Counted from the first letter of the stretch, positions 12,142-63,005 are shown. The stretch: DNA of 64,000 nucleotides from Gammaproteobacteria bacterium (GCA_036381515.1 DASVCR010000078.1:14371-78370); one strand, 5' to 3'. A program made the numbers and translations. The notes: generated by a model not told the origin, from the letters alone.

Positions 12142-13941
12142 TTACCGCTCGGGCAGCGCGAACACGTTGAGCGAGTTGCCGCGATTCTCGGGCACGGTGA
12201 AGCCGGCGGGCCCCGCGACCCACTGCGCGCCGGTCAGCTGCTCGCCGTTCACGACCGCGACGTACTGCTTGCCGTCGACCGCGTACGTGATCGTGCTGTT
12301 CTGCACGGTCGCGCCCAGCGGCTCGGACTCCCACAGGATCTCGCCCGTCTCCGCGTCGAACGCGCGCAGCACCTGCCCGATGTCGCCCCAGAACACGAGG
12401 CCGCCGGCCGTCGCGAGCACCGCGCCCGCGCCGGCCGCCCTGCCCTCGTAGAGCCTGTGGATCTCGCCGGTCGTCATGTCGATGCGTGCGAGCCCGGCGA
12501 ACCTCTCGGGATCGGCGCCGGGGCGCAGCGCCCCCGTGCGCCGCTCGCCGGCGCCGCCGGGGACCGCGCGGGTCATGTCGAGGCAAAGGTCCGTGTACGG
12601 CACATACAACGAATTCGTGCCGGGGTGATACGCCGTCGGCCAGTAGCTGCGCGTGTTCCAGAAGCAGATCAGGCTGTTCGCGCCGGGCTCCTTCAGCACG
12701 AGGTCCCAGTTGATGTAGGTCGTGCCGGTTTCCTCGTCGATGTCCGACAGGATGAAATGCGGCGTGTCGTACGGGAACGGCGTCGCCCACAGAAATTCGC
12801 CGGTGCGCCGGTCGTTGACCCAGATGCCTCCGCCCTCGCCGACCGTGACGACGACGTCGCGCTCGGCGCCGCGCTCGAGCTTCGTGCTGATCCACTTCAC
12901 GTGCTCGGGATCGGGATCGACGACCGTGCGGATCAGCACCTTCTCCTGGTTGATGTCCATGTCCCAGTCGTCGCCCGGCAGATGCTGGTAGTACCAGACG
13001 AGCTCGCCGGTATCGACATCGAGCGCGACCGTCGAGTTGCTGTAGAGGTCGGCGGGCGCGTGGCGCGGGATCGCCTCGGGATCGCCGCCGTGCCGGTCCG
13101 CGCGCGTGTTCGGCATCGGGTTCGAGATGCCCCAGTACACGATGCCGAGCTCCGGGTCGTACGTCCCGGGGAGCCCCCACGTGGACGCGCGCCGCTCGCT
13201 CGGCGGCGTGCCGCCCCACGAGTCGTCGCCCGGCTCGCCGGCGCCGGGCGTCGTGTAGAAGCGCCACACCTCTTCGCCGGTCTTCGCGTCGTGCGCGACG
13301 ATGTAGCACTGCTCGCGGGAGCTGTTGCACGTGCGGCCCGAGATCACCTTGCCGTCCGCGACGATCGCGCCTGAAGTGTGCGTCTCGATCGAGACCTCAG
13401 TCTGCCAGCGGACCTCGCCCGTCGCGGCGTCGAGCGCGACGACCGAGTTCGGCTCGTTGCGCGGCGCGGGCGCGGTGAAGTAGATCATGTCGTCGTAGAT
13501 CGCGAGCGCCTTGATGCGCGACGACGTGCGCCCCTCGGGCGTATACCTCCAAAGCTCGTCGCCGGTTGCCGCATCGAGCGCGAGCACCTCGCTCGGCCCC
13601 TCGCGCCCGCCCGGCGTGACGAGGTACATCACGCCCTCGTAGACGAGCGGGATGATCTCGATCGTCCCGGGCGGGAGCGGCATCGTCCATGCCTTCTCCA
13701 GGTTCGCAACGTTGTCGCGATTGATCTGATCGAGCGGGCTGAAGCGCTGTGCGTCGTACGTGCGGCTGTACATCAGCCAGTCCGCCGCATCGGGCCGCTC
13801 GAGCACCTCGTCGTTCACGGGAGCCGCCGCGACGGCCGCGAGCCTGTCGGTCTGCGGCGCCGAGGTCTGCGCCGCCGCGAGCGCGGACGCGAGCACCGAA
13901 AGGCATCCGATGGAGATCATGTCGAGGCGCTTCGTGCTCAT
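12142..13941 (-). CDS. Periplasmic PQQ-dependent dehydrogenase-like beta-propeller protein
   Basis: Signal peptide. Contains WLMYSRTYDAQRFSPLDQINRDNVANLEKAW and repeated A.D..TGE..W propeller motifs. No vicinal Cys-Cys and no haem motif. Confidence 0.8.
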   Translation of the reverse strand: MSTKRLDMISIGCLSVLASALAAAQTSAPQTDRLAAVAAAPVNDEVLERPDAADWLMYSRTYDAQRFSPLDQINRDNVANLEKAWTMPLPPGTIEIIPLVYEGVMYLVTPGGREGPSEVLALDAATGDELWRYTPEGRTSSRIKALAIYDDMIYFTAPAPRNEPNSVVALDAATGEVRWQTEVSIETHTSGAIVADGKVISGRTCNSSREQCYIVAHDAKTGEEVWRFYTTPGAGEPGDDSWGGTPPSERRASTWGLPGTYDPELGIVYWGISNPMPNTRADRHGGDPEAIPRHAPADLYSNSTVALDVDTGELVWYYQHLPGDDWDMDINQEKVLIRTVVDPDPEHVKWISTKLERGAERDVVVTVGEGGGIWVNDRRTGEFLWATPFPYDTPHFILSDIDEETGTTYINWDLVLKEPGANSLICFWNTRSYWPTAYHPGTNSLYVPYTDLCLDMTRAVPGGAGERRTGALRPGADPERFAGLARIDMTTGEIHRLYEGRAAGAGAVLATAGGLVFWGDIGQVLRAFDAETGEILWESEPLGATVQNSTITYAVDGKQYVAVVNGEQLTGAQWVAGPAGFTVPENRGNSLNVFALPER

Positions 13942-28535: not shown

Positions 28536-30497
28536 ATGAAGCGCAGACGACCCAATCTTCGCCCATCCTTCGCGCCCGCGAGCCGCCTCGCGCGCGTCGC
28601 GGCGGGCAGCCTCGTCATGGGGGTGCTGGCCGCCGCGATCGCGGAGGCGCAGACGGTGCAGCGGCCCGCCGAGCCCGACTACCGCACGTGGAACCAGTAT
28701 CTCGGCGGCGTCGACTCGTCGCAGTACTCCGCGCTCGATCAAATCAACCGGGACAACGTCACGCAGCTCGAGCCGGTGTGGAGCTACGAGACGGGCGACA
28801 ATCCGCTGTTCAACCCGATCGTCGTCGACGGCGTCATGTACGTGCGCGCACAGGGCGGGCTCGTCGCGCTCGACGCGGCCACGGGCCGCGAGATCTGGAG
28901 GAACGACATCTCCCCCGGGACGCGCGGCGTCAGCTACTGGGAGAGCGAGGACCGCTCGGACCGGCGGCTCCTGTATCTGAACCGCGGCTTCCTGACCGCG
29001 GTGGATGCGCGCACCGGCAAGGTGATCGAGTCGTTCGGCGACGGCGGCCGCGTCGACCTGCGGGTCGGTCTCGTCGACGACGTGAACAGCGTGCGGCCGC
29101 TACAGACGAACAATCCCGGCCGCGTCTTCGAGAACCTGATCATCATGTCGCTGCCCGCGGGCGGCGCGAGCTACAACTCGACGCCGGCGGACATCCACGC
29201 ATACGACGTTCGCTCGGGCGAGCTCGTCTGGGTCTTCCACACGGTGCCCCGCCCCGGCGAGTTCGGCGCGGACACGTGGCCGGACGGCGCGGCGCACGAC
29301 TTCGGCGGCGTGCACAACTGGAGCGAGTCCACCGTCGACGTCGAGCGCGGCATCGTCTTCATCCCGACCGGCACGGCACGTTACGACTTCTACGGCGCGA
29401 ACCGGCACGGCGACAACCTGTTCGGCAACAGCCTCATCGCGATCGACGCCCGCACCGGGAAGCGGCTGTGGCACTTCCAGACGATCCACCACGATCTGTG
29501 GGACTACGATATTCCGCAGGCGCCGAAGCTCCTGACCGTGCGCCACGACGGCGAGGAGGTCGACGTCGTCGCGCAGGCGACGAAGCAGGGATTCCTCTTC
29601 GTGTTCGAGCGTGACACGGGCGAGCCGCTCTGGCCGATCGAGGAGCGGCCCGTGCCGCAGTCGGATGCGCCGGGCGAGCAGTCGTCGCCGACGCAGCCGT
29701 TCCCGACCGCGCCGCCGCCGTTCGCGCGGCAATCGTTCACCGAGGACGACATCAATCCGTACATCCCGGAGGAAGACCAGGAGCGCCTGCGGGAGATGCT
29801 CCGGACGTACCGGAACGAAGGCCTGTACACGCCGCCGAGCCTGCAGGGCACGATCATGCTGCCGGGCCACAACGGCGGCGCGAACTGGGGCAGCGCGGCC
29901 GTCGATCCGGTGAACGGCAAGCTCTACATCGTCTCGAAGGAGCTGCCGACGACGGCGAACCTGCAGCTCCGTCAGGGCGGCGGCCCCGGCGGGCCGCAGG
30001 GCGGCGGCGGTCCCGTGCCGAACGAGGGCGAGGACTTCATCCCGTACTCGGTGCCGGTCGACTTCATGCTGCAGAGCAACGGCCTCTCCGCGATCGGCCC
30101 GCCGTGGTCCCGGCTCACCGCGTACGACCTGAACGAGGGCGTGATCGAGTGGCAGGTGCCGAACGGCGAGGTCGCATACCTTGCGGCCCAGGGCATCACC
30201 GGCACCGGCAGCCATGCGCCGCGCGGCGGCCCCGTCGTCACGGCCGGCGGGCTGCTCTTCGTCGGCACGTCGTCGGATCGCGCCTTCCGCGCGTACGACG
30301 TCGACACCGGCGAGGTGCTGTGGACGTATCGGCTCGACGCGGCATCGGAAGGCGTGCCGGCCGTCTACGAGGTGAACGGCCGCCAGTACATCACGATCGC
30401 GAGCGGCGGCTGGGGCCTCTTCGGCGTCCGCGAAGGGCTGCCGGAGCCGGGGCCGGGCAAGTACATCACGTTCGCGCTGCCCGACTCGGAAAGCTGA
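28536..30497 (+). CDS. Soluble periplasmic PQQ-dependent dehydrogenase, glucose/quinate/shikimate family (no membrane anchor)
   Basis: Signal peptide ..AAAIAEAQ. Contains SQYSALDQINRDNVTQLEPVW and HHDLWDYDIPQAPKLL (family hallmark). About 650 aa, equal to the propeller alone. Confidence 0.85.
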   Translation: MKRRRPNLRPSFAPASRLARVAAGSLVMGVLAAAIAEAQTVQRPAEPDYRTWNQYLGGVDSSQYSALDQINRDNVTQLEPVWSYETGDNPLFNPIVVDGVMYVRAQGGLVALDAATGREIWRNDISPGTRGVSYWESEDRSDRRLLYLNRGFLTAVDARTGKVIESFGDGGRVDLRVGLVDDVNSVRPLQTNNPGRVFENLIIMSLPAGGASYNSTPADIHAYDVRSGELVWVFHTVPRPGEFGADTWPDGAAHDFGGVHNWSESTVDVERGIVFIPTGTARYDFYGANRHGDNLFGNSLIAIDARTGKRLWHFQTIHHDLWDYDIPQAPKLLTVRHDGEEVDVVAQATKQGFLFVFERDTGEPLWPIEERPVPQSDAPGEQSSPTQPFPTAPPPFARQSFTEDDINPYIPEEDQERLREMLRTYRNEGLYTPPSLQGTIMLPGHNGGANWGSAAVDPVNGKLYIVSKELPTTANLQLRQGGGPGGPQGGGGPVPNEGEDFIPYSVPVDFMLQSNGLSAIGPPWSRLTAYDLNEGVIEWQVPNGEVAYLAAQGITGTGSHAPRGGPVVTAGGLLFVGTSSDRAFRAYDVDTGEVLWTYRLDAASEGVPAVYEVNGRQYITIASGGWGLFGVREGLPEPGPGKYITFALPDSES

Positions 30498-30512
30498 CCC
30501 TCGAAAGACGCG

Positions 30513-30544
30513 AAGCGGGCCGGCGATCGCTCGCCGGCCCGCTT
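30513..30544. terminator. Bidirectional hairpin terminator between convergent genes
   Basis: Perfect 14-bp stem aagcgggccggcga / tcgccggcccgctt with a 4-nt loop, verified base by base. Confidence 0.6.
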
Positions 30545-30570
30545 CCTATCGAGCGCGAGAGACGCGCGCC

Positions 30571-31581
30571 TCAGTTCTGGTTCCGCACCTGCTGCTGACG
30601 CTCGTAGCGCGACGTCTCGATGTAACTGCGCACCTGGATGTTGCCCTCGTGGCACGCGTACTCGAAGATCTCGTAGTCGTTGTTCAGCACCCACGTGTAG
30701 GCCGCCGTCCACGGCCGCGTCTGCATGACGGGATCCGCGACGGTGATCTCGTACTCGAGGCGATCATCGCTGACGCGCGTGAAGCGCTCCGTGATGTGAA
30801 GCTCCTCGCTCGTCGGCGTGTTGTAGCGCGGCGACCCGCTCGTGCCGATGTTCGTCATGTGCGGGATGCCGTTGAAGTTCGTCGTCTCGACGACGAGCGT
30901 GTTGCCCTCCCAGCGGCCGCGTGACTCGCCCATCCACTGCTTGATCTCGGGATCGAGCGGCGGCCGGCCGTCGAGCGGAATGATGCGCGCCTCGTGGATC
31001 ATCTCGAGCCGCAGCACGACATAGCCCGGCGTCTGGATGATCTCGATGCCGTTGTTGTACTGCATCGGGAACATCGACGCGGGCAGACCGCGCGTGATGC
31101 AGCGATCCCAGACGTCGAAGTCCTCGGGGCGATCCCACGTGTCGCGGAACCAGCTCGAGCCCATCGTCGGCGAGATCTGCTTGCCGAGCTCGGTCAGCTC
31201 CGGGAACTGGCCGTCCGGCGGATCGACGATCAGCGACGCGACGCGCGTCGGGATCTGCCCGGCCTCGGCCCAGTGGCCCATGCCCATCCGGCCCGACTGA
31301 ATCTCGCGTTCGTAGGCCGAGTTGCGGTTCGCGAGCTGCTCCTCGCGCTGCCTGTACTCCTCCTCCGTCAGCACGTTCCGCGTGCCGAACTCCGGCGGAC
31401 GAACGAGCGGAACGCCGGTCATGTGATTCACCGGCCACATGCCCTGCAGGTCGGGGTCGCCCCACGGCGTCCTCGGGTGCTCCCAGCTCGACTCCTGCGC
31501 GACGCTCGGCGCAGTCGCCCCGAGCAGGGCCGCGGCGACGCCTGCCGCGATCAGTCCGGGCCGCAAGATCCGCTCCTTCAT
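30571..31581 (-). CDS. Secreted uncharacterised protein, paralog A (WEG[ND]TLVVET family)
   Basis: Signal peptide MKERILRPGLIAAGVAAALLGATAPSVA. Shares GDPDLQGMW, C..RG.P and GRWEGNTLVVETTNFNG blocks with the 33880-34698 product. Confidence 0.75.
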   Translation of the reverse strand: MKERILRPGLIAAGVAAALLGATAPSVAQESSWEHPRTPWGDPDLQGMWPVNHMTGVPLVRPPEFGTRNVLTEEEYRQREEQLANRNSAYEREIQSGRMGMGHWAEAGQIPTRVASLIVDPPDGQFPELTELGKQISPTMGSSWFRDTWDRPEDFDVWDRCITRGLPASMFPMQYNNGIEIIQTPGYVVLRLEMIHEARIIPLDGRPPLDPEIKQWMGESRGRWEGNTLVVETTNFNGIPHMTNIGTSGSPRYNTPTSEELHITERFTRVSDDRLEYEITVADPVMQTRPWTAAYTWVLNNDYEIFEYACHEGNIQVRSYIETSRYERQQQVRNQN

Positions 31582-31770
31582 CGAAACCCTCCGTCGATTC
31601 GAAATTTTCGCTCGAGCCCGCAGAGCTTTCTCATCCGGACTCGCGAGTTCGCCGAGTATACGCGCTCGTCCGCGACAGCGTCGAACGCGGCGCCCTTGGG
31701 CTCGGGCACATTCAGCGTGTATCTTTAGCGCGATTCTGCCCGCCACGCGGCATTGCGGAGATCAAGAATA

Positions 31771-33708
31771 ATGAAGCGAATTCCGGCACTCGTCGCCGCG
31801 GGAGCGGCGGCGGCCTTCGTTGGCGCAGCGGGTTCCGACGCACGCGCCCAGGACAGCGACGCCCGATGGAGCAACAGTCACATGCCCGCCGGTGACTGGC
31901 GCACGATCCACCGCGATCTCGCCGCGACGCGCTACTCGCCGCTCGATCAGATCGACGTGCACAACGTCGCGAGCCTCGAGCGCGTCTGGACCTACCGCCT
32001 GAACGGCAACTCGACCGCGGTGCCGATCGTGATCGACGGCGTCATGTACGTGCCGAGCGGCGACCGCGTCGTCGCCCTCGACGGGAGCACCGGCGAGGAG
32101 AAGTGGGCTTATGTCGTCCCCCGGCCGGAAGGTCGGGGCGGCGGACCGGGCGGCGTGTCGACGCGCGGCGTCGGGTACTGGGCGGGCGACGCGAGCACGC
32201 CGCCGCGCATCCTCTTCATGGCCGGCTCGCGCCTCTACGCGGTCGACGCCGCGACCGGCACGCCGTCCGCGGGGTTCGGCGAGAACGGCAGCGTCGACGT
32301 CGGCGTACCGTACCGCGGCACGCCGACGATCTACGGCAACGTCGCCGTGATCGGCGCGAACGTGAACGAGGTGCCGCAGGGGCCGCCCGGCAACCCGCGC
32401 GCGTTCGACGTGCGCACAGGCAGGAAGCTCTGGGAGTTTCAGACGGTGCCGCGCCCCGGCGAGCCCTACAACGAGACGTGGGGCGACGGCTGGGAGAACC
32501 GCTCCGGCACGAACATGTGGGCGTTTGCCGCGCCCGTCGACGCGGAGCGAGGAATCGTCTATCTGCCGATCGCGGGGCCCGCGGCGAACTACTACGGCGG
32601 CGACCGCCCGGGCGAGAACGTGTTCGCGAACTCGATCGTCGCGGTCGACGCGGAAACCGGCGAGTACCTGTGGCATTTCCAGACGGTGCATCACGACCTC
32701 TGGGACTCCGACATGCCGTCCGCCGGCGCGCTGATCGACACGATCGTCGGCGGCCGGCGCGTGCCGTCGCTCGTGCACGTCGGCAAGACGAGCTACCTCT
32801 TCGTGCTGAACCGCGAGACCGGCGAGCCCGTGATCGACGTCGAGGAGCGGCCGGTGCCGAAGGGCGACGTGCCGGGCGAGTGGTACTCGCCGACGCAGCC
32901 GTTCCCGGTCAAGCCGCCCCCGCTCGCGCGCGTCAGCTTCACGCGCGACGAGATCGTGACGCCCGAGGAGACGACGCCCGAGCACTCGGCCGCGTGCCAC
33001 AAGTTCTGGGAGATGAGCGGCGGCTTCTACAACGCGGGGCCGTTCACGCCGTTCCTCTATCACGAGAAGGGGACTCCGCCCGCGTCGACGATCCAGTTCC
33101 CGGGCGGCACCGGCGGCGTCAACTGGGGCGGCGTCGCGGCGGACCCGACGACCGGCATCGTGTACGTGAACTCGCACGACACGTCGCTCGTCGGCTGGGT
33201 CGAGGACAAGGACCCGAACGTAACGTACAGCTTCGAGGCCGTCGGCTCGAGGCAGCCCTACGATCGCGCGAGCATCCTCGGCGTCGGGCCGTTCTTCAGC
33301 TTCAACGCGCCGATCAGCGGCGAGTTCGACGAGCAAGGCAGGCCCGTCGGCCCGACCCTGCCCTGCCACCGGCCGCCGTGGGCGCGGCTGATCGCCGTCG
33401 ACACGAACAAGGGCGAGATCCTGTGGGAGTCGGTGCTCGGGCTGAACGAGCTCCTGCCCGAGGGCAAGCAGCTCGTCGGCAACTCGGGCAGCGCAGGGCC
33501 CACGGTCACCGGCGGCGACCTCGTGTTCATCGGCGCGACGAACGACCGGCGCTTCCGCGCGTTCGACGCCCGCACCGGCGAGGAGCTGTGGCACGCCGAG
33601 CTCGAAGCCAACGCGAACGCGAATCCGATGAGCTACGCGGATGCTCTCGGCAAGCAGCACGTCGCGATCGTCGCCGGAGACACGGTCAACGTATTTGCGT
33701 TACCCTGA
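31771..33708 (+). CDS. Soluble periplasmic PQQ-dependent dehydrogenase, glucose/quinate/shikimate family (paralog of 28536-30497)
   Basis: Signal peptide. Contains TRYSPLDQIDVHNVASLERVW and HHDLWDSDMPSAGALI; collinear similarity to the 28536 gene. Confidence 0.85.
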   Translation: MKRIPALVAAGAAAAFVGAAGSDARAQDSDARWSNSHMPAGDWRTIHRDLAATRYSPLDQIDVHNVASLERVWTYRLNGNSTAVPIVIDGVMYVPSGDRVVALDGSTGEEKWAYVVPRPEGRGGGPGGVSTRGVGYWAGDASTPPRILFMAGSRLYAVDAATGTPSAGFGENGSVDVGVPYRGTPTIYGNVAVIGANVNEVPQGPPGNPRAFDVRTGRKLWEFQTVPRPGEPYNETWGDGWENRSGTNMWAFAAPVDAERGIVYLPIAGPAANYYGGDRPGENVFANSIVAVDAETGEYLWHFQTVHHDLWDSDMPSAGALIDTIVGGRRVPSLVHVGKTSYLFVLNRETGEPVIDVEERPVPKGDVPGEWYSPTQPFPVKPPPLARVSFTRDEIVTPEETTPEHSAACHKFWEMSGGFYNAGPFTPFLYHEKGTPPASTIQFPGGTGGVNWGGVAADPTTGIVYVNSHDTSLVGWVEDKDPNVTYSFEAVGSRQPYDRASILGVGPFFSFNAPISGEFDEQGRPVGPTLPCHRPPWARLIAVDTNKGEILWESVLGLNELLPEGKQLVGNSGSAGPTVTGGDLVFIGATNDRRFRAFDARTGEELWHAELEANANANPMSYADALGKQHVAIVAGDTVNVFALP

Positions 33709-33879
33709 GCGCCCCGGAGAGGGCCGGCGGAGCGAGCACGCTAGGGAAAATCAGGATCGCCCTTGTAGAAAATTAAGATCGCCGGGGGCCGGGAACGGGG
33801 TACTGTCGCACCCGTTCCTGCGGACCTCGGGCATTTTGCAAAACAGGTCCCGGTAACTATGGCAGAGGAGAGCTTTCAG

Positions 33880-34698
33880 ATGCGAAATCGATTGGCAGGC
33901 GCTATCGCGACGGCCCTGGCAGTGGCCGTCACCGCGGGTACCGCGCAAGCGCAGCAACAAGAGCGACCGGAGCGCCTGTTGGGCAAGCCCAACCTGAACG
34001 GGATTTGGCAGGCGATGAACACTGCGTACTGGAACCTCGAGGCGCATTCGGCCGAGCAGATCGAGGAGTTCTGGCAGATGGGCGCCTTCGCCGCGATCCC
34101 GGCAGGACAGAGCGTCGTCCGCGAAGGCAAGATCCCGTACAAGCCCGAAGCCCTCGCACAGCGCGACGAGAACCGCAAGAACTGGCCCGAGGCCGACCCC
34201 GCCGCGAAGTGCTACATGCCCGGGATTCCGCGCGCCACGTATCAGCCCTTCCCGTTCCAGATCTTCCAGGGGGACGGCGACATCCTGATGGTCTACCCGT
34301 TCGCGTCGACGAACCGGGTCATCAACATGGTCGAGCACCAGCCCGCCGTCGTCGACACGTGGATGGGCTACTCGAACGGCCGCTGGGAAGGCGACACGCT
34401 AGTCGTAGAAACCGAAGGGTTCAACGGCAAGACGTGGCTCGACCGCGCGGGTAACTTCGCGAGCCGCACGCTGAAGGTCACCGAGCGCTTCACGCCGCGC
34501 GGGCCGGACCACCTCTGGTACGAGGCGACGCTCGAGGATCCGGCTACGTTCTCGTCGCCGTGGACGATCGAGATGATGCTGTACCGTAACGTCGAGCCGA
34601 ATGCGCAGCTGCTCGAGTTCAAGTGCGTGCCGTTCGCCGACATGCTGCTGTACCACGATCTGCTGCTTCCGCAGGACCAGCAGCCACAGCAAGATTGA
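33880..34698 (+). CDS. Secreted uncharacterised protein, paralog B (WEG[ND]TLVVET family)
   Basis: GAGGAG Shine-Dalgarno 9 nt before ATG 33880. Signal peptide ..TAGTAQA. Contains GKPNLNGIW, KCYMPGIPR, GRWEGDTLVVETEGFNGKTW. An alternative ATG lies at 33859. Confidence 0.75.
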   Translation: MRNRLAGAIATALAVAVTAGTAQAQQQERPERLLGKPNLNGIWQAMNTAYWNLEAHSAEQIEEFWQMGAFAAIPAGQSVVREGKIPYKPEALAQRDENRKNWPEADPAAKCYMPGIPRATYQPFPFQIFQGDGDILMVYPFASTNRVINMVEHQPAVVDTWMGYSNGRWEGDTLVVETEGFNGKTWLDRAGNFASRTLKVTERFTPRGPDHLWYEATLEDPATFSSPWTIEMMLYRNVEPNAQLLEFKCVPFADMLLYHDLLLPQDQQPQQD

Positions 34699-34823
34699 GA
34701 AAGCGACCGGAACAAACCCATACGAACTGGTCTAAAATGTCAGCCGACGAGCACGCACCGAGACGATTTGTTAAATACCCGGACGAAGTGCGAAGCGATC
34801 AGCTGAAATAGGAGTAAGAGGTT

Positions 34824-35219
34824 ATGCGAAAGACGTTTTTGAGCATCGCGGCCGGGGCCGGATTCATGCTCTCCGCCGGATCGGCGCTCGCGCATCATTC
34901 CTTTGCTGCGGAGTTCGACCGCAACAAGCCCGTGTCTCTCGAGGGCGTGGTCGTGGAGTTCGAGTGGGTCAATCCGCACTCGTGGCTGCACATCGACGTC
35001 ACGAAGCCGGACGGCACGGTCGAGCGCTGGATGATCGAGGGCGGTGCGCCGAGCGCCCTGCTCCGCCGAGGCTGGACGCGTGACACGCTCCCGCCCGGAA
35101 CGAAGGTCCAGGTCACCGGCTTCCAGGCGAAGGACGGCTCGCTCCGAGCGAACTCGACGGGCGTCGTGTTCCCGGACGGCACGAGCCTCGACCTCGGCGG
35201 CACTCGCGTCGACCAGTAA
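34824..35219 (+). CDS. DUF6152-like small periplasmic protein
   Basis: Signal peptide ..SAGSALA, then mature N-terminus HHSFAAEFD..VSLEGVVVEFEWVNPHSW. Strong AGGAG Shine-Dalgarno. Confidence 0.75.
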   Translation: MRKTFLSIAAGAGFMLSAGSALAHHSFAAEFDRNKPVSLEGVVVEFEWVNPHSWLHIDVTKPDGTVERWMIEGGAPSALLRRGWTRDTLPPGTKVQVTGFQAKDGSLRANSTGVVFPDGTSLDLGGTRVDQ

Positions 35220-35261
35220 CACCGACGGCCCTCGCCGCGCGAGGGCCTGCACGGACGAAGG

Positions 35262-35292
35262 AACGGGGCCCTCGGGCCCCGTTTCCTTTTTT
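35262..35292 (+). terminator. Rho-independent terminator
   Basis: 9-bp stem aacggggcc/ggccccgtt, 4-nt loop, followed by a tcctttttt tail. Confidence 0.8.
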
Positions 35293-35308
35293 CGTGCCCC
35301 CGCCATTC

Positions 35309-35389: not shown

Positions 35390-36268
35390 ATGCCGCTCGT
35401 CAATATGAAGCCGGTTCTGGCCGAGGCGAAGTCGCAGGGATATGCGGTCGCGGCCTTCAATCCGGTCGACTATGCGTCGATGAAAGCAATGGTGGCCGCA
35501 GCCGAGGAGCTGAATGCGCCCGTCATCGTCCAGACGTCCGCGAAGACGATCAAGTACTACGGCCATCGTGCGCTCGTCGAATGGATGCGTGAGATCGCCG
35601 GCGAGTCCCCGGTCCCCGTCGTGCTGCATCTCGACCACGGCAAGGACTTCGAGATGATCAAGAAGTGCGTCGAGATGGGCTGGACCTCGGTCATGATCGA
35701 CGCGTCCGAGTACCCGTTCGAGAAGAACCTCGAGCTGTCGCGCCGCGTCGTCGACATCGCGTCGGCGAAGAGCGTCGGCGTCGAGGCGGAGATCGGGCAG
35801 ATCATGGGCGTCGAGGACGACATGGTCGTCGACGAGAAAGACTCGCATTACACCGATCCGAACGAGGCCGAGAAGTTCTGCCGTGAGCTCGATCTCGCCG
35901 CGTTCGCCGCCGCGATCGGCACGGCGCACGGCTACTACAAGGGCGAGCCGAACGTTCGTTTCGACTTGATCGAAGAGATCAACAAGCGCACCGGCGTGCC
36001 GATGGCGCTGCACGGCGGCACGGGTCTCTCGGACGAGGTGATCCAGCGCTGCATCAAGCTCGGCTGCGCGAAGATCAACATCTCCACGAACCTGAAGCAC
36101 GTCTTCATCGACAGCTTCGTCGGGTATCACGAGCAGAACCCGAAGGACTACGAGCCTCTGCGGGTGCTCGGCGCCCAGTTCGAAGCGATGAAGGCGCTCT
36201 TCAAGGAGAAGATCCAGCAGTTCGGCGGCGCGAACCGGGCGCCCGAGCTCCTCGCGAAGGTCGCGTGA
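35390..36268 (+). CDS. Class II ketose/fructose-bisphosphate aldolase family protein
   Basis: YAVAAFN, VIVQTS, LHLDHG, EAEIG, HGGTG motifs. AAGGAGAAAG Shine-Dalgarno before ATG 35390. Confidence 0.9.
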   Translation: MPLVNMKPVLAEAKSQGYAVAAFNPVDYASMKAMVAAAEELNAPVIVQTSAKTIKYYGHRALVEWMREIAGESPVPVVLHLDHGKDFEMIKKCVEMGWTSVMIDASEYPFEKNLELSRRVVDIASAKSVGVEAEIGQIMGVEDDMVVDEKDSHYTDPNEAEKFCRELDLAAFAAAIGTAHGYYKGEPNVRFDLIEEINKRTGVPMALHGGTGLSDEVIQRCIKLGCAKINISTNLKHVFIDSFVGYHEQNPKDYEPLRVLGAQFEAMKALFKEKIQQFGGANRAPELLAKVA

Positions 36269-36275
36269 GCCCGCG

Positions 36276-37001
36276 ATGACGATGCAAGCGTTGATTTTCG
36301 ACTGCGACGGCGTGCTCGTCGACACGGAACGCGACGGTCATCGCGTCGCGTTCAACCGAGCCTTCGCGGAGATGGGGCTCGACGTCTCGTGGGACGTCGA
36401 GCTCTACGGCGAGCTTCTGAAGGTCGCCGGCGGAAAGGAACGGATGACGGCGTACTTCGAGAAGGCTGGCTGGCCGGCCGAAGCGAAGGACAAGACCGCG
36501 TTCATCGCCGAGCTCCACAAGCGCAAGACGGCGATCTTCAAGGACATGATCGCGACGGGCCAGCTTCCGCTGCGCTCCGGCATCAACCGCATCATCGACG
36601 AGGCGTCCGCCGCAGGCATCCGCCTCGGGGTCTGCACGACGTCGAATCCGATCTCGGTGGACGGCGTGCTCGACCTGATGGGCCCAGAGCGCAAGCGCAA
36701 GTTCGAGTTCGTCCTCGCCGGCGACGTGGTCTCGAAGAAAAAGCCGGATCCGGAAATCTACAATCTCGCGAAAGAGCGGCTCGGCCTGCCCGGCTCGAGC
36801 TGCATGGTCATCGAGGATAGCCGTAACGGTCTGCTCGCCGCGCACGGCGCCGGCATGCCGTGCCTGATCACGACGAGCACGTACACGATCAACGAGAACT
36901 TCGATCACGCGGTCAAGGTCGTGCCCGAGCTGGGCGATCCGCCCAACGTCCTCGTGACGCTCGCCGACCTGAAGGCGCTCGCGGCCGAACGCGCCGCCTA
37001 A
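36276..37001 (+). CDS. HAD-IA hydrolase, CbbY-like sugar-phosphate phosphatase
   Basis: LIFDCDGVLVDTERDGHRVAFN, CTTS, KKPDPEIY, IEDSRNGLLAAHGAGM. Confidence 0.8.
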   Translation: MTMQALIFDCDGVLVDTERDGHRVAFNRAFAEMGLDVSWDVELYGELLKVAGGKERMTAYFEKAGWPAEAKDKTAFIAELHKRKTAIFKDMIATGQLPLRSGINRIIDEASAAGIRLGVCTTSNPISVDGVLDLMGPERKRKFEFVLAGDVVSKKKPDPEIYNLAKERLGLPGSSCMVIEDSRNGLLAAHGAGMPCLITTSTYTINENFDHAVKVVPELGDPPNVLVTLADLKALAAERAA

Positions 37002-37027
37002 GCGGCTTGCACGAGAGGAACGACAAC

Positions 37028-37687
37028 ATGAAGGAAATCACGCTTGCGGACGTCGAACGCGCGATCCAATCGATCGCGGATACGGCGCTGCGCAACGAAA
37101 AGTATTTCTCGGAGCTCGATTCGGCCGCCGGCGACGCCGATTTCGGCGTCTCCCTCGCGTCCGGCTTTCGCGTTGTGCAGAAGGACTGGGACCAGCTCGA
37201 CCGCAGCTCGATCGGCGCGTTCCTGTTGAAGATCAGCATGATCATCAGCAGGAACGTCGGCGGCTGCTCGGGACCGATCTGGGGCACCGGGTTCATGCGG
37301 GCCGCCGCGCTGTCGCGCGACAAGACGAGCATCACGCTCGACGAGCTCGAGAAGATGCTGACGGCGGCGATCGAGGGGATCCAGCAGCGCGGCGGCGCGG
37401 TCGCCGGCGACAAGACGCTGCTCGACGCGCTGATCCCGGTGCGCGACAAGATCAAGGAGTACGTCGGCCGCGACGATGCCGATCCCGGCGAGGTGCTGCG
37501 CGAGGCGGCGGCCGTCGCGACCGACGCGATCGAGCGTACGCGCGACTGGGTCGCGAAGCGCGGCCGTCAGTCGTTCACGGGCGAGCGCAGCATCGGAAGC
37601 CCCGATCCCGGCATCGTGGCGGTTGCGACGATGCTGAACGACCTCTGCAAAGCGGTCGGCGTCGAGCCGGTGAGCAAGGCGAGCTGA
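37028..37687 (+). CDS. dhaL: Dihydroxyacetone kinase, ADP-binding subunit DhaL
   Basis: LDSAAGDADFG, GCSGPIWG, GDKTLLDAL, GRQSFTGERSIGSPDPG. ATG 37028. Confidence 0.9.
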   Translation: MKEITLADVERAIQSIADTALRNEKYFSELDSAAGDADFGVSLASGFRVVQKDWDQLDRSSIGAFLLKISMIISRNVGGCSGPIWGTGFMRAAALSRDKTSITLDELEKMLTAAIEGIQQRGGAVAGDKTLLDALIPVRDKIKEYVGRDDADPGEVLREAAAVATDAIERTRDWVAKRGRQSFTGERSIGSPDPGIVAVATMLNDLCKAVGVEPVSKAS

Positions 37688-37732
37688 TCCATCCGCATCA
37701 TTGACAATACCAACAACCCTGGGGGCCAGGTC

Positions 37733-38728
37733 ATGAAGAAATTCGTCAACGATCCCGCGAACTTCGTACCGGAGATGCTCGAGGGCGTCGCGCTCGCCAA
37801 TCCCGAGCTGCTGCGCTACAAGCCCGAGTACAACATCATCTACCGCGCCGACCGGCCGCGCGACGACAAGGTGTCGATCGTGCAGGGATCGGGCAGCGGT
37901 CACGAGCCGGCGCACATCATGGCCGTCGGCCCCGGCATGCTCGATGCCGCATCGCCGGGCAACGTATTCTCCGCGCCGCCGATGGAGTTCTGCTATGAGT
38001 GCATCAAGCTGATGAACTCGCCGAAGGGCGTCCTGGTGCTGATCAACAACTATCAGGGCGACCGGATGAACTGGGACATGGCGGTCGAGATGGCCCAGGC
38101 CGAGGGCATCAACGTCAAGAGCTTCGTGATCGACGACGACGTCGCCGTGCAGGATTCGACGCACACGGTCGGCCGTCGCGGTGTCGCCGGCAACTTCTTC
38201 GTGATCAAGGCCTGCGGCGCGGCTGCCGAGAAGGGCGCGAGCCTCGACGACCTGCTCAAGCTCGCGGCGAAAGTGAACAGCCAGGTGCGCACGATGGGCA
38301 TCGCGCTGACGTCGTGCACTCCGCCCGCGAAGGGCACGCCGATCTTCGAGATCGGGCCGGACGAGATGGAGGTCGGCGTCGGCATCCACGGCGAGCCGGG
38401 CCGCCGGCGCGACAAGCTGAAGAGCGCCGACGCGATCGTCGACGAGCTTTTCGATGCCGTCTACAACGACCTGCCGTTCAAGTCGGGCGACCGCGTCGCG
38501 GTCATGATCAACGGCCTCGGCGGCACGCCGATCAGCGAGCTCTACATCCTCTATCGCCGCGCGGCGCAGCGCTGCAAGGAGAAGGGTCTCACGATCGTCC
38601 GCAACTACGTCGGCGAGTACTGCACGTCGCTCGAGATGGCCGGCGCTTCGCTCACGCTGCTGCGCCTCGACAACGAGCTCGAGGAGCTGCTCGCGGCGCC
38701 GGCCGAGATCGCGGTCCGCGTATTTTGA
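37733..38728 (+). CDS. dhaK: Dihydroxyacetone kinase, substrate-binding subunit DhaK
   Basis: MKKFVNDPANFVPEMLEG, SGSGHEPAH, GDRMNWDMA, GIHGEPG. Confidence 0.9.
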   Translation: MKKFVNDPANFVPEMLEGVALANPELLRYKPEYNIIYRADRPRDDKVSIVQGSGSGHEPAHIMAVGPGMLDAASPGNVFSAPPMEFCYECIKLMNSPKGVLVLINNYQGDRMNWDMAVEMAQAEGINVKSFVIDDDVAVQDSTHTVGRRGVAGNFFVIKACGAAAEKGASLDDLLKLAAKVNSQVRTMGIALTSCTPPAKGTPIFEIGPDEMEVGVGIHGEPGRRRDKLKSADAIVDELFDAVYNDLPFKSGDRVAVMINGLGGTPISELYILYRRAAQRCKEKGLTIVRNYVGEYCTSLEMAGASLTLLRLDNELEELLAAPAEIAVRVF

Positions 38729-39417
38729 CCTCCGCATCCTCGAAGGCCAGCATCGAGGTGCTGGCCTTCGATCTCGACGGCACCCTCGTCGACTCCGTCC
38801 CCGACCTCAACTACTGCCTCGGCGAAGCGTTCGAGTCGCTCGGGCTCGCGCGCTCGACCGAGGCCGACACGCGCGACTGGGTCGGCGACGGCGTCGAGGA
38901 GCTCGTTCGCCGCGGGCTCGAGCGCTCCGTTCCGCCGTCCGAAGCGGAAGCCCTCCTCTCGACGGCGATCGAGCGCTTCTCGGCCTGCTACGCGCGTAAC
39001 CTCTTCGTGCGCACCCGCCTCTACCCTGGCGTCGCCGAGACGCTAGACGTGCTTCGCGCACGCGGCGTGCGTCTCGCGTGCGTCACGAACAAGCGGCTGC
39101 GCTTCGCCGAGGCGCTGCTCGATCAGGCCGGCCTCCGCGAACGCTTCGAGCTCGTGCTCGGCGGCGACAGCGTCGCCGAGAGGAAGCCGAGCCCGATGCT
39201 GCTCGATGAGGCCGCCGCGCGGCTCGGCATCACGCCGGACGTTGCCGCCTACGTCGGCGACTCGTACCACGACATGCACGCGGCCCAGGCCGCACGCTGG
39301 CGCTTCGTCTGGGCGAGCTACGGCTATCGAAGAATTCCGCGCGACGAGCTGGTCGCCGCGCTCACGATCGACGCGATGCCGGAGCTTGCGGAGCGGCTCG
39401 AGGAGCTGGCCGTGTAG
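38725..39417 (+). CDS. gph: Phosphoglycolate phosphatase-type HAD hydrolase
   Basis: VLAFDLDGTLVDSVPDL, VTNK, KPSPMLL, YVGDSYHDMHAAQAA. Start uncertain: TTG 38725 overlaps the dhaK stop; GTG 38758 is the alternative. Confidence 0.8.
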   Translation: MTSASSKASIEVLAFDLDGTLVDSVPDLNYCLGEAFESLGLARSTEADTRDWVGDGVEELVRRGLERSVPPSEAEALLSTAIERFSACYARNLFVRTRLYPGVAETLDVLRARGVRLACVTNKRLRFAEALLDQAGLRERFELVLGGDSVAERKPSPMLLDEAAARLGITPDVAAYVGDSYHDMHAAQAARWRFVWASYGYRRIPRDELVAALTIDAMPELAERLEELAV

Positions 39418-60593: not shown

Positions 60594-61877
60594 ATGAGTC
60601 CTTCGAACGCCGGAAATTCCCGCAATCGTCTCGTGCTCGGGCTCGAAGCCGCGTTGCTCGCCGTCGTGCTCGCCGCGGCGGCCGGCTGCGGCTCGGGGAG
60701 CGGCGGAGGAAGCTCGGCTCCGCAACCGCCGCCGTCCGGCGGGGGCGGCGGTGGAGGCGGAGGCGGCGGCGGGGGCGGCGGCGCTCCGCCGGTCCTCGAG
60801 CCGAACTTCGCGTCGATCCAGCAGAACGTGTTCACGCCGATCTGCACGACGTGTCATGCCGGCGCCACGGCGCCCCAGGGGCTCAGGCTCGACGAAGCGA
60901 ACAGCTACGGCCTTCTCGTCGGCGTGCCGAGCGCCGAGGTGCCGTCGATCCTGCGCGTCGCGCCGGGCGACCCGAACAACAGCTACCTGATCCAGAAGCT
61001 CGAGGGCACCGCGGCCGTCGGCGGGCGGATGCCGCTGAACATGACGCCGCTGTCGCAGGCGGACATCGCCGTGATCCGCCAATGGATCACGGAAGGCGCG
61101 CAGCCGGCGACGCCGCCGGCGCCGCCGAGCGAGCCGCTGCGCGTGACCTCGCTGTCCCCGCTCCCGGATTCGACGCTCGACGCGCTGCCGCCGCAGATCA
61201 TCGCGATGTTCGACCGCGAGCTCGACGCGACGTCGATCACCGCGCAGTCGTTCACGCTGACCGCGAGCGGCGGCGACGGCACGTTCGCCGACGGCAACGA
61301 GACCATCGTGACGGCGGCGTCCGTCGGCGTCTCGCAGAGCAATCCGGCCTCGGCCGTGATGGACCTGACCGGCGTCACGGCCGGCGACGATACGTACCGC
61401 GTGCGGCTCGCGGGCGACGGCCCGGCACCGATCCTCGACCTCGACAGCAATGCGCTCGACGGCGAGTTCGCGGGCACGTTCCCGTCCGGCGACGGCACGC
61501 AGGGCGGCGACTTCGTCGCGGACTTCATGGTCGTGGCGCCGCCGCAGGGCATCCAGCCGACGCTCGACTCGATCCAGACGAACGTGTTCTCGCCGATCTG
61601 CTCGGCGTGCCACACGGGTCCGACCTCCGGCACGCTGCCGTCGGGCCTCGATCTGTCGGACGCCGATGCGAGCTTCGCGAGCCTCGTCGGGGTCGCGAGC
61701 CTCGAGCAGCCCGCCGTGCAGCGCGTCGCGCCGAACGACCCGGACGCGAGCTATCTCGTGCACAAGATCGAAGGCACGGCCGCCGTCGGCGGGCAGATGC
61801 CGCTCTTCCAGGCCCCGCTCGAGCAGGACGCCATCGACGCGATTCGCGAATGGATCGCGCAAGGCGCGGCACGCTGA
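60594..61877 (+). CDS. Lipoprotein with two duplicated CxxCH (PSCyt1-like c-type cytochrome) domains flanking an Ig-like domain
   Basis: Lipobox LAAAAGC and a 15-Gly tether. CTTCH (60843-60857) and CSACH (61599-61613), each inside a ~100-aa repeat: SIQ.NVF.PIC..CH...L.L......L......V.P.DP..SYL..K.EGTAAVGG.MP......I..I..WI..GA. Confidence 0.8.
   Translation: MSPSNAGNSRNRLVLGLEAALLAVVLAAAAGCGSGSGGGSSAPQPPPSGGGGGGGGGGGGGGGAPPVLEPNFASIQQNVFTPICTTCHAGATAPQGLRLDEANSYGLLVGVPSAEVPSILRVAPGDPNNSYLIQKLEGTAAVGGRMPLNMTPLSQADIAVIRQWITEGAQPATPPAPPSEPLRVTSLSPLPDSTLDALPPQIIAMFDRELDATSITAQSFTLTASGGDGTFADGNETIVTAASVGVSQSNPASAVMDLTGVTAGDDTYRVRLAGDGPAPILDLDSNALDGEFAGTFPSGDGTQGGDFVADFMVVAPPQGIQPTLDSIQTNVFSPICSACHTGPTSGTLPSGLDLSDADASFASLVGVASLEQPAVQRVAPNDPDASYLVHKIEGTAAVGGQMPLFQAPLEQDAIDAIREWIAQGAAR
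60738..60782 (+). repeat. (GGN)15 simple repeat encoding a poly-glycine tether
   Basis: 15 consecutive Gly codons, counted on the sequence. Confidence 0.95.
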
Positions 61878-61889
61878 CCGGAGCGCCGC

Positions 61890-63005
61890 ATGAAGACGAC
61901 GATCGGAAGGACGACGATCGCCGCGGCCGCGCTGTGGCTCGCAGCCATGCTGCTCGCGGCCGGTGCTCGGGCGGAGCCCTATCTCGCCGTCAGGACCGGG
62001 CTCAAGTGCGTGAGCTGTCACGTCAACCCGTCGGGCGGCGGGATGCGCAACGCGTTCGGGAACGCGTGGGCGCGCAACGAGCTCGCCGCGCGAATCGTCA
62101 CGCCGCCCGGCGTCGACGCTTCGGACGCGGGCTGGACGGGCGAGCTGCACCGCTACCTCGCGGTCGGCGGCGACTTGCGCACGGGGCTCGTCCACGAGGA
62201 CGTCCCCGGGCTCGATCCGGAGTCGGAGTTCGCGATCTCGCGCGCGACGGTCTATGCCGCGCTTCGCGCGATCCCGAATCTGCTGACGGTCTATCTCGAC
62301 GAGCAGGTCGCGCCCGGCGGCGCCGTCGCGCGCGAAGCGTACGCGCTCCTCACGCCGGCGAACGGACGCTACACGATCAAGGCGGGCAAGTTCTTCCTGC
62401 CGCACGGGCTGCGCCTGCAGGACGACACCGCGTTCGTGCGGCAGATTACGGGCATCAACTTCGACACGCCCGACCACGGCGTCGAGCTCGGGCTCGAGCT
62501 GCCGCGCTGGTCCGCGCAGCTCGGCGTCACGAACGGCACGGCGGGCGGCGGCGAGAACGACTCGTCGAAGCAGACGTCGCTGAACGCGAGCTACGTCCTG
62601 CCCCGGTGGCGGATCGGCGCGAGCTACAACTACAACAACGCGGACCTGGGCGACCGCGAGATCCGCGGAGCCTACGTCGGCTGGCGCACCGGACCGATCG
62701 CGTGGCTCGCCGAAGCGGATCTCGTCACCGACGACGTGGCCGGCGGCGAGCGCGATACGTACGTGAGCCTGCTCGAGGGCAACTGGCAGCTGCGCCGCGG
62801 CCACAACCTCAAGGTCACGTACGAGTACTACGATCCGGACGACGACCTCGACGAGGACGAGCGCGAGCGATACAGCGTCGTCTGGGAGCTGTCGCCGATG
62901 CAGAACCTGCAGTCACGGATCGGCATGCGCTTCTACAACGGCGTGCCCGAAGACGACGCGAGCAACCGCGACGTGTTCTTCGCGGAGCTGCACGTCTACT
63001 TCTGA
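61890..63005 (+). CDS. Fused monohaem cytochrome-porin candidate (Cyc2-like outer-membrane beta-barrel with N-terminal CxxCH)
   Basis: Signal peptide ..AAGARA. CVSCH at residues 40-44 (62007-62021), followed by NPSGGGM. Then ~320 aa of alternating amphipathic strands ending ..FFAELHVYF. Confidence 0.65.
   Translation: MKTTIGRTTIAAAALWLAAMLLAAGARAEPYLAVRTGLKCVSCHVNPSGGGMRNAFGNAWARNELAARIVTPPGVDASDAGWTGELHRYLAVGGDLRTGLVHEDVPGLDPESEFAISRATVYAALRAIPNLLTVYLDEQVAPGGAVAREAYALLTPANGRYTIKAGKFFLPHGLRLQDDTAFVRQITGINFDTPDHGVELGLELPRWSAQLGVTNGTAGGGENDSSKQTSLNASYVLPRWRIGASYNYNNADLGDREIRGAYVGWRTGPIAWLAEADLVTDDVAGGERDTYVSLLEGNWQLRRGHNLKVTYEYYDPDDDLDEDERERYSVVWELSPMQNLQSRIGMRFYNGVPEDDASNRDVFFAELHVYF

Follow-up and report, generated by a model that had tools for sequence, protein, structure and literature searches.

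This analysis concerns a block of five genes (28536-35219) in a 64,000-nt stretch of DNA from Gammaproteobacteria bacterium (GCA_036381515.1 DASVCR010000078.1:14371-78370); the whole stretch is referred to below as the window, and all coordinates are counted from its first letter. Genes were called from a listing of open reading frames (ORFs) together with Pfam and NCBIfam domain scans. Two of them encode paralogous pyrroloquinoline quinone (PQQ) beta-propellers, PQQ1 (28536-30497, plus strand, 653 aa) and PQQ2 (31771-33708, plus strand, 645 aa), and two encode members of a family that we call X, namely X1 (30571-31581, minus strand, 336 aa) and X2 (33880-34698, plus strand, 272 aa). The fifth encodes a DUF6152 protein (34824-35219, plus strand, 131 aa; PF19649, E 4.5e-35, 120.1 bits versus a cutoff of 27). 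It is followed by an intrinsic terminator (35260-35295, plus strand) with an 11-bp stem containing eight G-C pairs, a 4-nt loop and a T-rich tail. All five proteins are secreted. A preliminary description of the locus had given the same genes, motifs and terminator, and had proposed that each dehydrogenase forms a functional unit with the adjacent X protein. The neighbourhoods that we counted show a different hierarchy: the core unit is X2–DUF6152, and the link to PQQ enzymes is limited to one clade.

The arrangement of the block already bears on this question. X1 converges on PQQ1, their stop codons being about 73 bp apart, and is oriented divergently from PQQ2 across a gap of 189 bp, so that X2 alone can share a transcript with a PQQ gene. 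The divergent X1/PQQ2 intergenic region (31582-31770, 189 bp) contains one sigma-70-like element on the minus strand (31684-31655), which is a consensus match only. PQQ2, X2 and DUF6152 look like the one transcription unit of the block, closed by the terminator. The idea that X1 is the partner gene of PQQ1 is not supported: the two genes are convergent and in relatives X1 is co-directional with a carboxylesterase gene. This secreted type-B carboxylesterase occurs in 10 of 82 loci, immediately downstream of X1 on the same strand (L001, 3083-5745, minus strand). It lies between PQQ1 and X1 in that locus and, judging by position, in other gammaproteobacterial loci, and is absent from the window.

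To define the constant part of the locus, we considered 80 genome and eight contig loci with X2 orthologues of 62-96% identity, in which ORFs were classified using the window proteins as queries. The 80 genome loci are all from metagenome-assembled genomes (MAGs), none from an isolate, and the taxa include Gammaproteobacteria, Acidobacteriota (Terriglobia, Bryobacterales and Vicinamibacteria), Hyphomicrobiales and Rhodospirillaceae. DUF6152 is found immediately downstream of X2 on the same strand in 75 of 79 loci. Conversely, 82 of 88 DUF6152 genes abut an X-family gene, and only three of 57 X1 orthologues have a DUF6152 of their own. Among the 49 fully flanked loci, an X1 orthologue (50-60% identity) is present within 10 kb of X2 in 43, whereas a PQQ propeller of any kind is present at this distance in only 26 and directly beside X2 in 13; the other 23 loci have no PQQ gene within 10 kb. 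In other words, X2–DUF6152 is near-invariant, X1 is usual and the enzymes are variable. Thus the preliminary description was right in placing a DUF6152-like protein at the end of the block before the terminator, but its bystander role does not hold, DUF6152 being the key partner of X2.

The PQQ genes that do occur in these loci are not scattered: for 30 of 54, an X or DUF6152 gene is at most 300 bp away. They belong to two subfamilies, mGDH-like (membrane glucose dehydrogenase-like) and ADH-like (alcohol dehydrogenase-like), and the ADH-like enzyme in locus L006 has its own cytochrome c. The complete PQQ1–X1–PQQ2–X2–DUF6152 block is found in about a dozen gammaproteobacterial MAGs. This block is present on the public gammaproteobacterial MAG contig L009 (CAZKNH010000004.1), where X2 is 96% identical. 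The commonest enzyme neighbour of X2–DUF6152 is a secreted B3-like metallo-hydrolase with the metallo-beta-lactamase fold (235 bits versus the NF033105 cutoff of 240), which is found in 30 of 49 loci (e.g. L006 9301-10161 and L016 6085-7065) and is not in the window. A second, CAR-like type of metallo-beta-lactamase-fold neighbour occurs in Bryobacterales. When flanking ORFs were clustered without bias, many clusters turned out to be shadow ORFs of high-GC genes, and apart from X, DUF6152, PQQ, carboxylesterase and the metallo-beta-lactamase fold no family exceeded about 12% of loci. We also considered a TonB receptor as a core member, as it is seen in L003 and in Croceibacterium, and rejected it because it was found in one of 49 loci with the query used.

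The view from the dehydrogenase side was obtained with 80 metagenome loci containing PQQ2 relatives, binned by identity to PQQ2. An X gene is directly downstream in 16 of 24 relatives with at least 58% identity (any X within 4 kb in 20 of 26), in two of 21 relatives with 50-57% identity and in none of 20 relatives below 50%, even though the latter are still mGDH-family matches (X within 4 kb in three of 24). Two arrangements recur: PQQ2 followed by X2 and DUF6152, and PQQ2, with or without a preceding PQQ1, followed by an X1-like gene without DUF6152. This gradient, together with the two gene orders, indicates that the PQQ–X link is genuine yet a property of one PQQ clade and not of anchor-less mGDH-type enzymes at large; the link arose or was retained in several gene orders. 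The adjacency itself is real and not due to chance. Consequently, the part of the preliminary description that saw a functional unit in the pairing is borne out as far as conserved adjacency and co-occurrence among close relatives go, and fails for relatives below 50% identity. One dehydrogenase plus one X is not the unit.

Moreover, X and DUF6152 also occur together where no PQQ gene is nearby. In cultured strains, X proteins of 24-29% identity are encoded beside DUF6152 with no PQQ neighbour: X is followed by DUF6152 in Novosphingobium humi KACC 19094 and Novosphingobium sp. PP1Y, two DUF6152 genes are followed by X and a TonB receptor in Croceibacterium atlanticum 26DY36, and DUF6152 precedes X in Sinorhizobium mexicanum ITTG R7. 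These remote loci of cultured sphingomonads and rhizobia often also carry one or two genes for DUF6644, a membrane protein described below, beside DUF6152.

The two dehydrogenases are 37% identical to each other. Both match the 595-position PF01011 profile over its full length (1-595), PQQ1 with 616 bits (E 7e-185) and PQQ2 with 560 bits (E 1e-167), against a gathering cutoff of 26.7 bits. The top NCBIfam family for both is TIGR03074 (membrane glucose/quinate/shikimate dehydrogenases), but the scores of 430 and 369 bits, respectively, are below the cutoff of 832.65 bits, and the alignments start at profile position 146 (PQQ1, to 774) and 134 (PQQ2). With E. coli Gcd, the two proteins have the eight-bladed PQQ propeller in common, PQQ1 being 34% and PQQ2 32% identical to it (31-34% across the whole catalytic domain). 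Gcd residues W404, D466 (within HHDLWD), K493 and D730 are invariant in Gcd, PQQ1, PQQ2 and three orthologues, whereas H775 is not kept in PQQ1 and PQQ2. The first ~150 residues of Gcd, which form the ubiquinone-coupling anchor of five transmembrane (TM) segments, have no counterpart; instead, there is a single signal-peptide-like hydrophobic segment. Judged by these alignments, PQQ1 and PQQ2 are soluble periplasmic mGDH-family propellers without a TM anchor, in other words a known kind of enzyme in a known variant form. This agrees with the preliminary description, which had relied on HHDLWD and on the signal peptide in place of the anchor, and had considered the electron acceptor undefined. 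The nearest solved structures are quinohemoprotein alcohol dehydrogenases (E ~1e-38).

Both propellers also have a D-x-D pattern (WDYD in PQQ1 and WDSD in PQQ2), in which a further Asp stands two residues beyond the catalytic one. In the alcohol dehydrogenase family, D-x-D marks lanthanide enzymes. However, E. coli Gcd, which uses Ca/Mg, carries D-x-D as well (WDMD), making it a family trait that is uninformative on the choice of metal here; the pattern was therefore rejected as a diagnostic of lanthanide dependence. As had been noted before, no cytochrome c, cupredoxin or pqq gene lies within the block according to Pfam and a scan of ORFs for CXXCH. In view of the missing pqq genes, binding of PQQ by X was considered as a further possible role. 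The nearest CXXCH ORFs, which are the sole CXXCH-bearing genes of the window, are at 60594-63005 (plus strand) and encode a PSCyt1/cbb3-type cytochrome c-like protein followed by a weakly porin-like protein, also with CXXCH. The window contains a third, more distant PQQ beta-propeller (12142-13941, minus strand, 599 aa; PF01011, E 8e-62), which has no X or DUF6152 neighbour.

X1 and X2 are indeed secreted paralogues without a known domain (33% identity across 156 aa, E 3e-19), and have in common the blocks G.P.L.G.W, C...G.P and GRWEG[ND]TLVVET..FNG; X1 is a long form, which has an insertion in its N-terminal part when compared with X2. Neither protein has a Pfam or NCBIfam match, a comparison of 65 diverse X members with Pfam at E<=1 gave no family in common, and a search of PDB sequences with the X profile produced only noise. 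The proteins thus do not fall into any characterised family, and their adjacency to PQQ enzymes recurs outside the window. The family is large. X2 has at least 8000 homologues, every one of them annotated as 'hypothetical' and none with a Pfam domain, and an exhaustive profile search collected 16,913 representatives of 50%-identity clusters at E<=1e-3 (8,930 at E<=1e-10). Near-invariant positions include C111 and C249 as well as D106, R118, Q130, R146, S165, D188, E202, R203, Y214 and D220, and the alignment contains no conserved His, no Met cluster, no CXXCH and no recognisable redox-cofactor motif. Most of the ten longest homologues have two or three X matches per protein, which suggests tandem X repeats, and none of the ten is a fusion to DUF6152 or another domain. 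At the gene level, arrays of three to five X paralogues, some with their own DUF6152, are found in L133 (1206-4764), L019 (16030-20592) and L097 (1-3269), and point to lineage-specific expansion of the family. X2 proteins of Acidobacteriota and Gammaproteobacteria are 62-70% identical, compared with ~50% for PQQ2 and ~60-65% for DUF6152 of the same loci. Such identity across phyla suggests either unusually strong constraint or a recent horizontal spread of the module.

Structure prediction was run for the 272-aa X2. The AlphaFold2 model built from an alignment of 65 sequences is confident (predicted local distance difference test, pLDDT, 89.8; predicted template modelling score, pTM, 0.84) and replaced an unusable one from 21 sequences (pLDDT 59.7). 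Residues 126-236 of this model form eight or more strands in a row, and ~120 aa at the N-terminus form a wrap. A Foldseek search of PDB with this model returned only calycin-type ligand binders (CRBP, CRABP, FABP, SAHS and nitrophorin). Based on a confident model and a weak fold match, the X2 core is predicted to form a closed beta-barrel of FABP/lipocalin-like type, which contains a conserved pair of Cys and weakly resembles FABP and CRABP.

For DUF6152, the most conspicuous feature is its N-terminus. The signal-peptide cleavage site reads A/HH[SAG]x (the slash marks the cut) in 98 of 100 distinct sequences, the window copy having ALA/HHSF. As His-His directly follows the predicted cleavage site, the mature protein would start with two histidines. 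Also conserved in these 100 sequences are AEFD, NPH (His in at least 90%), EGG.P and KDG, and remote homologues retain both HH and the His equivalent to that of NPH. By analogy, the His-His pair and the third His suggest an N-terminal metal site. A search of PDB sequences with DUF6152 gave only noise and no relationship to a solved structure; some JGI records name the protein after the YhcR OB-fold COG, the OB label being an annotation of that source only. A MAG protein in NCBI (P0271) is 100% identical to the window copy. The small lanthanide 'cargo' protein of a 2026 preprint was considered as a possible DUF6152 and rejected, since it has no conserved domain and its ligands are Asp/Glu. In the literature, we found no paper mentioning DUF6152 or DUF6644, and nothing relevant for PQQ combined with lipocalin.

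DUF6644 is a protein of ~160 aa with four TM segments, a conserved His in TM1, a DLRLxG motif and a weak match to DUF2214. DUF6152 followed by one or two DUF6644 genes, some of them translationally coupled, is found in Paracoccus, Cupriavidus, Sinorhizobium and Novosphingobium as gene pairs or operons (L091 5986-6849, L092 5962-6846, L093 5998-8474, L095 12542-15539, L089 6068-7043 and L085 9190-10127). The order in the Sinorhizobium operon is DUF6152–X–DUF6644–DUF6644, and DUF6152 of Paracoccus versutus and Cupriavidus campinensis is accompanied by one or two DUF6644 genes but not by X. No DUF6644 is encoded in the window, and among X2-lineage loci it was found in one only.

Upstream of the block are BrkB and HflK/C-like genes and a CitMHS/TrkA_C transporter. 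Past the terminator, on the plus strand (35390-39417), there are genes for class II fructose-bisphosphate (FBP) aldolase, a HAD phosphatase, Dak2, Dak1 (dihydroxyacetone kinase) and a second HAD protein. This FBP aldolase/Dak cluster is syntenic with the block in five to eight related gammaproteobacterial loci.

Based on these data, we favour the view that X and DUF6152 form a periplasmic ligand-carrier module with a metal-binding partner. Considered as a whole, this reading, which leans on a structure model and on analogy, is tentative, and we would give it somewhat less than an even chance. The X barrels would bind a small, poorly soluble ligand in the periplasm, most likely a substrate or product (of ester or alcohol type) of the neighbouring hydrolases and dehydrogenases, or possibly a quinone, and would pass it to soluble enzymes that lost their membrane anchoring. 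A binding role is suggested by the fact that ligand-binding calycin barrels are the only fold matches of the X2 model in PDB. It is also suggested by the nature of the neighbours, which are periplasmic hydrolases and dehydrogenases (the carboxylesterase with X1 and the B3-like metallo-hydrolase among them), and by the many paralogues per locus, with up to 4-5 in tandem (L019 and L133), a pattern that we take to be typical of specificity-diversified binders. DUF6152 would hold a metal ion through its N-terminal amine and histidines and act as the fixed partner of X2. The metal site is proposed because of the His-His start and the conserved NPH His, both of which extend to remote homologues, and because Cu(II) sites built on an N-terminal His have precedents in YcnI and CopC (PMC8424229, PMC12362106, PMC10952591). 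The PQQ2 clade might have recruited this module as an accessory, in which case anchor-less PQQ enzymes at large would not depend on the module as a subunit. For the block itself this would mean a periplasmic catabolic locus in which two soluble mGDH-family enzymes are joined to a wider, so far undescribed periplasmic module; we regard this as plausible but far from assured.

Several observations weigh against a carrier module. The conservation of X2 across phyla and its many near-invariant polar residues are less expected of a generic lipid carrier than of an enzyme or a protein with a fixed cofactor site. The best fold matches of X2 are weak (E 2e-3 or weaker, TM-score 0.47-0.58, 9-16% identity). 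Several loci have an X1-like gene after PQQ2 without DUF6152, and hence DUF6152 is not always needed. Adjacency to a TonB receptor is also rare (one of 49 X2 loci).

An alternative puts the metal at the centre. DUF6152 might handle Cu, Zn or Ni in the periplasm, as a metallochaperone or an uptake protein, with X as its partner and, in other lineages, DUF6644 as the transporter; we consider this unlikely. The invariant N-terminal His-His with the conserved third His would be expected of such a protein, and the DUF6152–DUF6644 gene pairs, sometimes translationally coupled and involving a four-TM protein with a His in TM1 and a weak DUF2214 match, form an arrangement analogous to CopC/CopD and YcnI/YcnJ (PMC8424229, PMC12362106). 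The module would then supply or buffer metal for periplasmic metalloenzymes, for example the di-zinc B3 hydrolase, and the link to PQQ would be indirect. The status of the B3-like protein as the commonest enzyme neighbour (30 of 49) is consistent with this possibility, which we likewise judge to be on the improbable side. Yet X, the constant partner, has neither a conserved His nor a Met cluster, the loci have no metal-responsive regulator or P-type ATPase in common, and DUF6644 is missing from the window and from nearly all X2-lineage loci. Moreover, PQQ enzymes depend on Ca or a lanthanide, and histidines are not ligands of these metals.

It is rather improbable that the block encodes obligate two-component enzymes, as the preliminary description implied, each PQQ dehydrogenase having the adjacent X as its acceptor, maturation factor or substrate-binding subunit. 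The two-fold pairing is kept as a block in about a dozen MAGs, X is directly downstream of 16 of the 24 close PQQ2 relatives in two independent arrangements, 30 of 54 PQQ genes lie within 300 bp of X or DUF6152, and propellers of both the mGDH-like and the ADH-like subfamilies adjoin X genes. However, nearly half of the X2 loci (23 of 49) are without a PQQ gene in the surrounding 10 kb, X is never directly downstream of PQQ2 relatives below 50% identity (none of 20, and three of 24 within 4 kb), and remote X–DUF6152 pairs have no PQQ neighbours. X1, convergent with PQQ1, is co-transcribed with the esterase in relatives. Moreover, X has no conserved His, CXXCH or other recognisable redox-cofactor motif, and the ADH-type PQQ enzyme in L006 has a cytochrome c of its own.

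Similarly doubtful, in our estimate, is that X1 and X2 are themselves enzymes of calycin fold, for example isomerases, lyases or cyclases acting on the products of the dehydrogenases and hydrolases, with DUF6152 as a small subunit. Calycin barrels do include enzymes, such as allene oxide cyclase and lipocalin-type prostaglandin D synthase. The very high conservation of X2 (62-70% identity across phyla) and the dense set of near-invariant polar and charged residues (R146, E202, R203, Y214, D188, D220, Q130 and S165) would be natural for an active site. However, X has no sequence or profile match to any enzyme family, and the fold matches in PDB are binders, not enzymes.

A more radical proposal is that X–DUF6152 is a relay that replaces the lost anchor, DUF6152 being a redox metalloprotein with a histidine-brace-like site and X carrying a quinone or similar redox ligand. 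Electrons would pass from the soluble mGDH-type PQQ enzymes to the respiratory chain, in other lineages via DUF6644. We think this quite improbable. If true, it would be an electron-acceptor system of quinoproteins that is neither cytochrome c nor cupredoxin, and we allow only a slim chance for such a categorically new system. The already disfavoured explanation, adjacency without functional meaning owing to synteny inherited in one lineage of PQQ-rich genomes, is very improbable: PQQ propeller genes are numerous in these taxa (the window has the third one) and the complete five-gene block does not extend beyond related gammaproteobacterial MAGs, but Acidobacteriota, Vicinamibacteria, Hyphomicrobiales and Gammaproteobacteria all have cases of PQQ–X adjacency, with differing gene orders and PQQ subfamilies, and PQQ genes cluster within 300 bp of X or DUF6152 instead of being spread over the flanks.

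The question matters beyond this locus. Soil Acidobacteriota and Gammaproteobacteria commonly have anchor-less mGDH-type quinoproteins. Through this locus, one clade of these enzymes is connected with DUF6152 and with an unannotated family that comprises nearly 17,000 sequence clusters, and there are handles in the form of a confident fold model of X, the invariant N-terminal His-His of DUF6152 and cultured hosts of the pair. Solving the module would annotate thousands of 'hypothetical' periplasmic proteins, and could show where soluble quinoproteins obtain their substrate or metal, or how they dispose of electrons.

Among known systems, SldAB offers a parallel to the dehydrogenases. In this polyol/glycerol dehydrogenase of Gluconobacter, SldA belongs to the mGDH-family propellers, carries a signal peptide but no anchor, and depends on SldB, a separately encoded, small and hydrophobic membrane peptide that corresponds to the mGDH anchor. 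The block has a similar anchor-less mGDH-family catalytic subunit with a separately encoded neighbour, and is adjoined by the Dak/aldolase cluster. As only a hint, this cluster would fit the oxidation of a polyol or glycerol by PQQ1 and PQQ2 to a ketose, as by SldA, followed by phosphorylation. Unlike the SldAB locus, the block has no ORF for an SldB-like small hydrophobic anchor, its intergenic gaps (73-189 bp) containing no further ORF, and the neighbours are predicted soluble beta-barrel proteins. Another parallel is provided by MxaJ/XoxJ, the periplasmic accessory proteins of PQQ methanol dehydrogenases. Like X, they are secreted, their role is unclear, and their genes adjoin and are conserved with those of PQQ dehydrogenases. 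However, they have a solute-binding-protein-like fold, in contrast to the calycin-like barrel modelled for X, and X is also widespread without a PQQ neighbour.

With the calycin binders (FABP, CRBP/CRABP, SAHS and lipocalins), the X2 model appears to have in common a closed antiparallel beta-barrel of similar size, a likeness that is weak at the fold level, but X2 differs in its ~120-aa N-terminal wrap and conserved Cys pair, and no sequence-profile relationship links them. In E. coli, YceI is a periplasmic lipocalin-like binder of isoprenoid quinone that goes together with YceJ, a membrane cytochrome b561. A comparable combination, a periplasmic barrel encoded with a four-TM, His-bearing membrane protein, would be seen in X and DUF6644 of Sinorhizobium and Novosphingobium. 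The comparison does not rest on homology, DUF6644 is not in the window, and binding of heme or quinone by X or DUF6644 is suggested by analogy only.

Finally, histidine-brace and related Cu(II) sites are characterised by an obligatory His at the N-terminus, and CopC and YcnI work with membrane partners (PMC10952591, PMC8424229, PMC12362106). DUF6152 was compared with histidine-brace proteins by N-terminal sequence pattern alone, and the likeness is one of analogy, not of membership. With CopC/CopD and YcnI/YcnJ the resemblance is two-fold: DUF6152 is a small extracytoplasmic protein with a predicted His as its first mature residue and a further conserved His, and in other lineages its gene adjoins that of a small polytopic membrane protein, DUF6644.

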